Assembly: GCF_030013205.1 (NCBI RefSeq)
Contig: NZ_CP122648.1
Reading direction: 5' to 3' (one strand)
DNA: 64,000 bases
DNA from: Escherichia coli
Lineage (GTDB): Bacteria > Pseudomonadota > Gammaproteobacteria > Enterobacterales > Enterobacteriaceae
Made by a program: the position numbers. The stretch's first letter is position 1; each line of letters begins with the position of its first letter. Below, piece by piece: positions 51,901-54,900 of the stretch.

Positions 51901-54900
51901 TGTCGGGTAGTCGGGCTAATGAAGTCATCGCCATTCTGATAGTTGTGTTCACCCACGCCAACATAGGCCAGCACATGATCGGTATTGGTAATCGCCACCG
52001 CATCGGCATGAATATCATCGCGGATAATTTCACAAACTTTGCGTAATGACTCGCTATTGACATGGCGAAACAGCGGCAGCGTTTTGTTGGCGATATCCAG
52101 CGCCAGCTTGGCCTGCCGCGCGGCGCTGGCCTCTTTTTCGCCCTCAACGCTTTGCACCAGCAGCACAATAAAGCCGATACAGACGCTACCGAGGATCATC
52201 GGAATCCCGATTTTAGAGACGATATCGATCCCCAACGCGGTAGTTGGTGCCCAGACAATCACCAGAATCATGGTCAACGTTTCACATAACATGCCGCCGA
52301 GAATACCGACGCGCCAGCGCTGTGCTTTGGGGATTTTCAGGTTGATCCAGCCCGATATACAACCCGCCAGAATGCTGGTGATAAAGCAGGGGATCGCCGT
52401 CACGCCGCCGATATCAATTAAATACCGGTGAATACCCGCAATCACGCCGGTAATGATGCCTACCCACGGGCCAAACAGAATCCCGCCTGACATCACCGCG
52501 ATAATACGAACGTTCACCAGCGAGCCTTCTACGGGAACGCCGGACCAGGTGCTGAACAGGGCGAACAGCGAGAAAATGGCGGTAACAGCGAGCAGCTCTT
52601 TTGGGGAGTGCGCCGACTTGTGCAACAGTTCGCGAAACAGGCGGATACGGATGAGAAAGAACAGGCAGATAAGCATTAACGCTGCCCGATCGAAGACCGC
52701 CAGCAGCATGTTGAATATTTCGTGCACGGGTGACTCTGAATAAGGATTAAACCTCTATGATAGGTAACCTGAAGGCTGATGACCAGCAGGCCGTTTTTGA
52801 GGAAAAACCACAATTTTAAAAGGGGATTGAAAGATAAATGGTGTATTAGCAATGCATCTCTTGATAATGCACATCTGCTTGGTAAATTTATTGAAATTAT
52901 AATGTTAATAAAATGAGTGGTAATTTTCTTGTTAGCGCAGATAAATTTCCTGTTTTTGAAGTGGCGTTCCTCATTTAAAGCCATTGATAAAAATGTTCTA
53001 AAACGCTGGACAGACAGAAATTAATCAGGCTATTTTCAAAACAGCCACCATCGTGGCAGCGTCGCTCGGACGGTCCGGGCGCTAACGTTAATCTGAGGAA
53101 ATTATGGCTGACACTCGCCCTGAACGTCGCTTTACGCGCATTGATCGTCTCCCGCCCTACGTTTTTAATATTACCGCTGAACTGAAAATGGCTGCGCGTC
53201 GGCGCGGCGAAGATATTATCGATTTCAGTATGGGTAACCCGGACGGTGCGACTCCGCCGCACATCGTCGAAAAATTATGTACGGTGGCCCAGCGCCCGGA
53301 CACGCATGGTTACTCCACTTCACGCGGCATTCCGCGGCTACGTCGCGCCATTTCACACTGGTATCAGGATCGCTACGACGTCGAGATCGACCCGGAATCA
53401 GAAGCCATCGTCACCATTGGTTCGAAAGAGGGACTGGCGCATCTGATGCTGGCGACGCTGGATCATGGTGACACTGTACTGGTGCCTAATCCAAGCTACC
53501 CGATTCATATTTACGGCGCGGTGATTGCCGGGGCGCAGGTACGCTCAGTGCCGCTGGTGGAAGGTGTCGATTTCTTCAACGAACTGGAACGCGCCATTCG
53601 CGAAAGTTATCCGAAACCGAAGATGATGATCCTCGGCTTCCCGTCGAACCCAACCGCGCAATGCGTGGAACTGGAATTCTTTGAGAAGGTTGTGGCGCTG
53701 GCGAAACGATACGATGTGCTGGTGGTCCATGACCTGGCCTATGCCGATATCGTCTACGATGGCTGGAAAGCGCCGTCAATCATGCAGGTGCCGGGTGCAC
53801 GCGATGTGGCGGTCGAGTTCTTTACGCTGTCGAAAAGCTACAACATGGCGGGCTGGCGTATCGGCTTTATGGTTGGCAACAAAACGCTGGTCAGCGCGCT
53901 GGCACGTATTAAAAGCTATCACGATTACGGCACCTTTACGCCGTTGCAGGTGGCAGCGATTGCGGCGCTGGAGGGCGATCAACAGTGCGTGCGCGATATT
54001 GCCGAACAGTACAAACGCCGCCGTGATGTACTGGTTAAAGGGCTGCATGAAGCGGGCTGGATGGTCGAAATGCCGAAGGCTTCGATGTATGTCTGGGCGA
54101 AAATCCCGGAACCGTATGCTGCCATGGGCTCGCTGGAATTTGCCAAGAAGCTGCTGAACGAAGCGAAGGTCTGTGTCTCTCCGGGGATTGGCTTTGGCGA
54201 CTACGGCGACACGCATGTTCGCTTTGCACTGATTGAAAACCGCGACCGTATTCGTCAGGCGATTCGTGGAATTAAAGCGATGTTCCGTGCCGACGGTTTA
54301 CTACCCGCCAGCAGCAAACATATTCACGAAAACGCGGAATAAACACCGTCGTCAGAAATGCAAACAGGAGCCTGATGGCTCCTGTTTTTCGTTTCGCAGT
54401 TTACTTTTAGATCATCAGGGCAAAAGTACCGGCCCAAACGATGACCATAAAAGAAATGCCCATAAAGAAATATTTCACTTTACATCTCTCCGCGTAATTA
54501 CTGTTACGCCTGAATGACTTCATTACACCTGATACAGTGAGTTGACACCGGGCAAAACGACCTTAAAAGTCCTGTATTTTACCGTGGGCATCACCCCAGA
54601 ATTCTGAGCTAAACTGCTCCAGACGGCGCTAATGTACGCCTAAAACTGAAACGAGACAAGAGGCATTTTCTTATTTACTTTTAGTAACTTACAGGTGTCT
54701 CATATCGGCGACAGTTTAATTTCTGACGGTAATAATTAGAGATTCAGCGAAGGAAAAAACCTTAAGAAAAAAGCCATAAAAACCATGAGGTTATTATGGC
54801 TGATTTGAGGAGGGAAAGAGTAAGAGCAGTTTGTTAAATGTATAGCGACGATTCTCCCACCGGGCGCGTTTTAAAGCGACGGTGGATCCAGAGGTACTGC

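Follow-up and report, generated by a model that had tools for sequence, protein, structure and literature searches.

The 23-codon reading frame on the minus strand between alaC and lpxP is the already annotated Escherichia coli gene ypdK. Our overall reading, in which we have high confidence, is that this known gene encodes a single-helix membrane peptide under selection and forms its own unit of about 270 nt with a structured leader. The analysis covered a stretch of 64,000 nucleotides of E. coli contig NZ_CP122648.1 (RefSeq assembly GCF_030013205.1), referred to here as the window, and positions are given within it (Table 1). Direct reading of the minus strand gave GTG-KYFFMGISFMVIVWAGTFALMI-TAA (codons GTG AAA TAT ... 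ATC TAA), with the translation VKYFFMGISFMVIVWAGTFALMI followed by the TAA stop; this is the GTG-started frame, and the sequence, that the first-pass annotation had quoted, the initiator GTG being read as Met. The RefSeq annotation has a CDS with exactly equal coordinates and strand (gene ypdK, 'membrane protein YpdK', WP_010723117.1).

Table 1. Sequence features of the ypdK region (window positions)
Feature	Position	Strand	Details and basis
Bidirectional intrinsic terminator of ypdK (-) and alaC (+)	54362..54387	both	11-bp stem; T-run on + strand
ypdK CDS	54407..54478	-	23 codons; RefSeq CDS; NCBIfam NF033437; third-position variation in 77 loci
Shine-Dalgarno GGAG	54488..54491	-	9 nt upstream of GTG; read from sequence
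ypdK mRNA 5' leader, non-coding, structured	54479..54626	-	about 146-148 nt; tiling-array 5' end and covariance model
Helix P3 (GCGUAA-CAGUAA-UUACGC)	54492..54509	-	ends directly 5' of GGAG
Helix P2, long hairpin	54539..54597	-	5' arm 54597-54588 GGGGUGAUGC; 3' arm 54548-54539 GUGUCAACUC; variable apical part
Helix P1, 5'-terminal hairpin (UCUG-G-AGC ... GCU-CAGA)	54603..54623	-	covariation
Putative sigma-70 promoter	54631..54659	-	-35 TTGTCT (54659-54654), 17-nt spacer, -10 TACATT (54636-54631), then G+C-rich AGCGCCG
lpxP intrinsic terminator	54766..54801	-	hairpin 54801-54772 and U-run

The identification of the peptide as the K-12 small protein YpdK was borne out by three sources that agree with one another: the RefSeq coordinates and accession, a family model and a published sequence. 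The peptide scored 57.5 bits (E = 9.4e-16) against the NCBIfam equivalog NF033437 'YpdK', for which the curated cutoff is 30 bits, with residues 1-23 aligned to profile positions 1-23 of 23, and the exact peptide sequence carries the name YpdK in NCBI and UniRef. The 23-aa sequence given for YpdK in a table of E. coli small membrane proteins (PMC10470546, Table S1) is identical to the window peptide, and ypdK has been counted among the 18 small membrane proteins of Hemm et al. 2008 (PMC3009722). The suggested comparison with the K-12 annotation was run and returned an exact match: in K-12 AB1157, as in CFSAN018748 (100% identical to the window), the CDS is located at 2608-2679 of the locus on the minus strand, equivalent to the window CDS, and both are WP_010723117.1. 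The window gene and that of K-12 share the same 23 amino acids, start, stop and position after alaC, and the surrounding 601 nt of the window differ by about 2%. Searches of Pfam, PADLOC and PDB gave no match to the peptide, including no solved structure that contains it. YpdK protein is said to have been detected by epitope tagging by Hemm and colleagues in 2008. Because ypdK has been part of the K-12 annotation since that year and is called by the NCBI pipeline, the gene call as such adds nothing new; only the conserved structured leader and the linkage to alaC go beyond the annotation. The recovery of ypdK demonstrates that a first-stage reader can find genes too small for ORF tracks.

YpdK is predicted to consist almost entirely of one hydrophobic helix inserted in the inner membrane. 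It has a GRAVY value of 1.73 and a single charged residue, Lys2, and only one of the 556 ORFs of 18-40 aa in the window was as hydrophobic. The single bilayer-spanning hydrophobic stretch with few charges is the pattern by which single-pass small inner-membrane proteins are recognized. TMHMM analysis reported for YpdK placed the helix at residues 4-21 with a predicted N-out/C-in orientation (PMC10470546, Table S1), and in the same study an HA-MBP-YpdK fusion was not cleaved by RseP. A likeness of YpdK to a transmembrane segment of YpdA was at chance level (E = 0.7) and was discarded.

Homologues of ypdK were identified by scanning alaC loci across 100,044 species genomes, followed by local tblastn searches with the peptide, and loci from 80 species were fetched, spanning Escherichia, Citrobacter, Klebsiella, Enterobacter, Kosakonia, Cedecea, Buttiauxella, Pantoea, Erwinia, Mixta and Serratia. 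An intact homologue was present in 75 of the 80 species, on the strand opposite alaC; in the other five, the locus ran into a contig end (L004), carried a frameshift (L069), retained a 3' remnant with WVGVFYLML before the stop (L073) or had no detectable trace of the gene (L072, L081). Homologues were 23 residues long, or 24 with an extra E, K, N or A, and followed the conserved pattern M-K-Y-x-x-M-G-x-S-x5-W-x-G-T-F-x-(L)-M-x, with Tyr3, Met6, Gly7, Ser9, Trp15, Gly17, Thr18 and Phe19 listed as invariant. The intact frame of 23-24 codons was found in 77 loci, and the coding statistics were based on 66 distinct nucleotide sequences, which correspond to 40 distinct peptides. Mean column entropy among the 66 sequences was 0.56, 0.17 and 1.12 bits at codon positions 1, 2 and 3, respectively, and the pooled pairwise pN/pS was 0.27. 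At the invariant residues Gly7, Ser9, Gly17 and Thr18, all four synonymous codons were used at each position. Since so high a hydrophobicity was reached by so few ORFs of the window, and since 75 of 80 other species conserve the frame and show a coding signature in it, the ypdK frame is more than a chance occurrence. On this comparative evidence ypdK is a genuine protein-coding gene, and the substitution pattern points to the peptide sequence itself being under selection. The coding signature also lends indirect support to translation of the frame. A fixed set of about ten residues, conserved across at least three families of Enterobacterales, offers a handle for mutation work. The conserved positions sit on all faces of the helix and, therefore, no single interaction face can be named.

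Within the species, 5422 of 5426 complete E. coli genomes carried the 601-nt region around ypdK, with a median of one copy, and ypdK was annotated beneath the match in 30 of 30 cases among the matches listed. Among 5423 records, 4771 carried the 72-nt CDS with 100% identity, whereas only 38 reached at least 99% over the surrounding 601 nt.

In the window, ypdK lies tail-to-tail with alaC (53104-54342, plus strand), the two stops being 64 nt apart. The minus-strand gene lpxP stops at 54834, and ypdK follows 355 nt further downstream. The placement between alaC and lpxP in the first-pass annotation is thus correct for the window, and its alaC half applies generally, but it does not hold as a rule, the lpxP neighbour being lineage-specific. 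The tail-to-tail arrangement with alaC was found in every one of the 75 species carrying ypdK intact, with a gap of mostly 40-150 nt and four loci further away (223, 287, 731 nt), and this synteny was held across Enterobacteriaceae, Erwiniaceae and Serratia. The upstream neighbour was lpxP only in Escherichia, Citrobacter and Enterobacter-like genera, whereas elsewhere it was a different gene, often divergent. The gene ypdA adjoins in most species, but in 12 loci ypdK was found without ypdA within 3 kb, a weaker linkage than that with alaC. Judged from these gene orders, only the linkage to alaC is general, and alaC is the sole persistent genomic companion of ypdK. The short spacer and the common terminator alone may account for this unbroken linkage. 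The pyruvate-sensing genes ypdAB are usually found next to the alaC-ypdK pair.

ypdK appears to form a transcription unit by itself, about 270 nt long. The putative sigma-70 promoter belongs to a block, cTTGTnn...GTACATTAGCGCC, that nearly all loci carry some 120-170 nt ahead of the GTG; in its fuller form the block reads cTTGTnn-(17)-TACATT-AGCGCC, with TTTATT/TAAATT in Pantoea, and it was also present in Serratia. The E. coli site scored 8/12, below the threshold of a simple promoter scan, and the promoter call was made on consensus and conservation, backed by a low-resolution tiling-array 5' end. From the promoter position, transcription was predicted to start near 54624. In the K-12 tiling-array data (PMC3009722, file S3) a transcript is reported at 2494795-2494997, with ypdK at 2494943-2495014, which places the 5' end of the transcript 148 nt upstream of the ypdK start codon. 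This published 5' end matches the putative promoter, at the low resolution of an array, which is not that of a mapped start site. A possible second promoter coincides with the conserved block CUCUAUACUCAG, which is -10-like in many genera but has no consistent -35 and is degenerate in E. coli.

Intrinsic terminators lie on both sides of the unit. The terminator between ypdK and alaC, which begins 19 nt after the ypdK stop, has a minus-strand folding energy of -21.1 kcal/mol (z = -4.5) and is followed by UUUGCAUUU, the hairpin being flanked by an A-run and a T-run. The hairpin was kept in other genera with changed, compensating stems (GGGAGCC, GGCGCC, GGGGCGAC). Upstream, the lpxP terminator (-17.7 kcal/mol, z = -5.7, followed by UUUUUU), which had been missed by a simple terminator scan, sets lpxP transcription apart from ypdK. 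The view of ypdK as a free-standing unit is based on its own promoter block with a matching transcript 5' end, the terminator that lpxP has of its own, the varying upstream neighbour and the terminator after the ORF.

The leader between the promoter and ypdK was analysed using a MAFFT alignment of the leaders of 38 Enterobacteriaceae, in which RNAalifold identified two helices and a third was added by eye. In this alignment, 84.6% of cells were paired in P1, with changes on both sides in three of six pairs and variants such as UUUGGUGA/UCACCCAAA and UUGCGU/ACGCAA. Pairing was more complete in P2 (95.6% of cells, compensatory changes in six of nine pairs) and P3 (94.2%, five of six pairs), both of which also occur in the E. 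coli minimum-energy fold, and P3 was the sole helix recovered de novo on an alignment of 61 sequences that included distant genera. P3 adjoins the ribosome-binding site. Over the 21 pairs together, 92.1% of cells were paired, compared with 31-47% when partners were slid by 1-3 columns; double changes occurred in 14 of the 21 pairs and none of 500 column shuffles reached any of five measures, figures obtained among related sequences, for which significance can be overstated. The case for structure rests on covariation because the E. coli leader alone is not an energy outlier (z = -1.5 against shuffles). The conserved linkers between the helices, AAUUCUGAG and CUCUAUACUCAG, are single-stranded.

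A covariance model of the leader, which includes 15 nt of coding sequence that add to its scores, had one match in the 64-kb window, at 54464-54627 on the minus strand with 132 bits. It matched once per related locus, always upstream of ypdK, and in 612 kb only at the ypdK site. A search of window positions 53900-55100 with 4227 Rfam covariance models (E <= 1) gave no family match, as the only three hits were at chance level and fell far short of the gathering scores of their plastid and snoRNA families, and no description of the leader was found in the limited literature searched. As a conserved structure found in no RNA family database, the leader provides helices that can be disrupted as an experimental handle. 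Two further elements were considered. An upstream ORF starting from GTGATG inside P2 was rejected, its start being absent in many genera and the ORF varying from 5 to 44 codons with sequences unrelated between genera. RNAalifold also proposed a long-range pairing of CGUC at the 5' end with GAUG beside the start codon, for which we make no claim because it comprises only 4 bp with almost no variation.

We infer that YpdK would most likely serve a larger inner-membrane protein as its transmembrane accessory or regulator. In the proposed scheme, the sigma-70-type promoter about 150 nt upstream of ypdK would drive a transcript made up of the structured non-coding leader P1-P3, the GGAG and, 9 nt further on, the GTG of the 72-nt frame, and this unit would end at the hairpin terminator shared with the convergent alaC. 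The peptide would sit in the inner membrane and pack, via its invariant residues, against a larger inner-membrane protein, whose stability or activity might thereby be altered. Conserved positions around the whole helix fit surroundings made up of protein and not of lipid. By analogy, YpdK may work in the manner of AcrZ, MgrB, MgtS, CydX and KdpF, each packing on a larger inner-membrane protein and changing its stability or activity, a proposal to which we give even chances. Proteins of this type appear in the same experimental lists as YpdK (PMC10470546, Table S1; reviewed in PMC12648545). With the small proteins of the pairs AcrZ-AcrB, MgrB-PhoQ, MgtS-MgtA/PitA, CydX/CydH-cytochrome bd and KdpF-KdpABC, YpdK shares a length below 50 aa, essentially one transmembrane helix, a chromosomal location and conservation in enterobacteria. 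Unlike cydX and kdpF, however, ypdK is not in an operon with a candidate partner, and in contrast to AcrZ and MgrB the extramembrane tail of YpdK is almost absent, with 3 residues at most. Nor is YpdK a sequence relative of AcrZ, MgrB, MgtS, CydX/CydH or KdpF, as judged by the lack of a Pfam or PDB match.

With regard to expression, translation could be held low or made conditional by the helices of the leader together with the weak GTG start, a suggestion that we rate somewhat below an even chance. A more specific version, which we consider possible but rather unlikely, is that the leader represents an undescribed cis-regulatory RNA of Enterobacterales that gates translation of the peptide on some signal; under that version, YpdK would take part in handling pyruvate or alanine at the membrane, and its linkage to alaC and ypdAB would be a reflection of this.

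A different role would be that of a type I toxin-like gene, in which a hydrophobic peptide damages the membrane and is silenced by the folded leader and perhaps by an antisense RNA, in the manner of tisB, dinQ, hok and zorO. In size and hydrophobicity YpdK resembles TisB, DinQ, ShoB and IbsC, with which it stands side by side in Table S1 of PMC10470546; like TisB, DinQ, ZorO and ShoB it is a short hydrophobic peptide with a long, folded 5' leader, and its start codon is weak. There is also a mild UV response, the transcript overlapping ypdK having increased by log2 1.06, about two-fold, after UV (PMC3009722, file S3). The CGUC-GAUG pairing could, in addition, bring the 5' end to the ribosome-binding site, although 4 bp with almost no covariation speak against it. 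Against a toxin stands the distribution of the gene, a vertically inherited, single-copy core gene in 5422/5426 E. coli genomes that keeps its synteny with alaC in three families. A patchy occurrence and multiple copies are typical of type I toxins, and ypdK shows neither. With ten of its positions nearly invariant, the peptide seems to make specific contacts and not to disrupt membranes in a generic way. Moreover, a simple scan detected no promoter-like site antisense to the ypdK mRNA and the Rfam search no antitoxin or toxin leader, both scans being weak evidence of absence. Taken as a whole, we consider a toxin-like function very improbable.

Marginally lower still we place the reading that ypdK is a regulatory mini-ORF, i.e. 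a leader peptide or translated spacer, or that it functions as RNA only, the peptide being irrelevant. The ORF is indeed very short and lies within a transcript that is mostly conserved non-coding structure, and dual-function RNAs such as SgrS/SgrT and AzuCR provide precedents (PMC8915982). Leader peptides and attenuators, however, have a regulated gene downstream on the same strand, whereas ypdK has nothing downstream to regulate: beyond its stop come a strong terminator and, next, the 3' end of alaC, which is convergent. Conservation of the amino acids while synonymous sites vary, seen in the pN/pS ratio and in the four residues that are invariant across four codons each, is the opposite of what an irrelevant peptide would lead one to expect. 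An RNA base-pairing role in addition to that of the selected membrane peptide is possible.

Regarding the start of the peptide, GTG was the start codon in 66 of 66 distinct homologous sequences and AAA the second codon in 64 of the 66, with AAG never used. The GGAG was invariant in both the 38-sequence and the 61-sequence alignments, with AGGAG in its place, slightly closer to the GTG, in Erwiniaceae. A 38-aa product from the in-frame ATG at 54523 (MKSFRRNSNYAERCKVKYFF...; ORF 54407-54523) is present in the window and would have in ATG a generally stronger start than GTG, but it is effectively refuted, and we give it hardly any credence, by the lack of conservation upstream of the GTG (other genera differ there, with in-frame stops, and are conserved from the GTG onward), by the absence of a ribosome-binding site before the ATG, whereas the GTG is preceded by GGAG, by variation of the extra codons through compensatory changes in the overlapping helix P3 and not by codon position, and by the 23-aa form being taken in both NCBIfam and RefSeq. 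The 23-aa form is therefore the correct one, as the GTG is invariant and the ATG with its 15 extra codons is unconserved and overlaps a compensating RNA helix. The constant GTG start, and the linkage of ypdK to alaC rather than to lpxP, are modestly useful side results.

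Upstream of ypdK, the analysis identified a conserved promoter block, TTGTCT-17-TACATT-AGCGCC, which agrees with the 5' end of the published transcript, followed by a leader of approximately 146 nt that contains three covarying helices and is not represented by an Rfam family. The G+C-rich stretch 3' of the -10 element is probably comparable to the discriminators of stringently controlled promoters. Leader sequences in Pantoea, Erwinia and Serratia are unlike those of the Enterobacteriaceae type; in single-sequence folds these leaders have in common a long-range pairing, 5' GAUCC ... 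GGAUC, which closes the leader approximately 35 nt 5' of the ypdK start codon.

Coordinates of features in and around ypdK, lpxP and ypdA (window positions unless a locus is given; L071 and L077 are alaC loci)
Feature	Position	Strand	Remarks
ypdK promoter block and leader	54464-54660	minus	conservation, covarying helices
ATG-TAA start-stop pair	54479-54484	minus	between Shine-Dalgarno and GTG start of ypdK
ypdK codons 1-3	54476-54470		nucleotide-level conservation
Intrinsic terminator after lpxP	54766-54801	minus	strong, z = -5.7
lpxP ORF, longer form	54834-55820	minus	mechanical ORF list, TTG start, 328 aa
YpdK-like segment inside ypdA	~52227-52265	minus	9/13 identical residues
Divergent ypdK leaders, examples	L071:4348-4502; L077:4992-5189		Pantoea, Erwinia, Serratia group

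The motif GGAGnGATG was conserved across the Enterobacteriaceae ypdK loci. Most genera have its ATG out of frame, and a few have it in frame (ATGAACGTG); this ATG is probably not a start codon in use, as only 3 nt separate it from GGAG. Among the 66 distinct ypdK sequences, the second codon was AAA in 64 and AGA in two, with AAG in none, and GTGAAATA at codons 1-3 was invariant at the nucleotide level. This preference for AAA, together with the invariant GTGAAATA, suggests that, in addition to coding, either the efficiency of initiation or RNA structure is under constraint.

In two Erwiniaceae, ypdK appears to be decaying. The gene of 'Candidatus Pantoea haifensis' (L069:4299-4366) is frameshifted by a single base, which an error in the assembly could explain, and in Erwinia endophytica (L073:4231-4400) only the 3' end, WVGVFYLML*, was present.

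The terminator following lpxP was overlooked by a simple terminator scan. The RefSeq lpxP product is a protein of 306 amino acids (locus 3035-3955, equivalent to window 54834-55754), and the longer form in the mechanical ORF list probably reflects merely an upstream in-frame TTG.

The histidine kinase YpdA contains a transmembrane segment that resembled YpdK residues 11-23, a likeness that was at chance level (E = 0.7 in the locus) and is seen repeatedly because both proteins are conserved.

A G+C-rich, Pseudomonas-labelled contig (NZ_BDAC01000002.1, locus L081, titled Pseudomonas indica) encoded an AlaC homolog that shares 91% identity with E. coli AlaC across 403 residues and near which neither ypdK nor ypdA was found. 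Since this identity is unexpectedly high, exceeding what the genus would predict, the homolog may reflect horizontal transfer or a mislabelled record.
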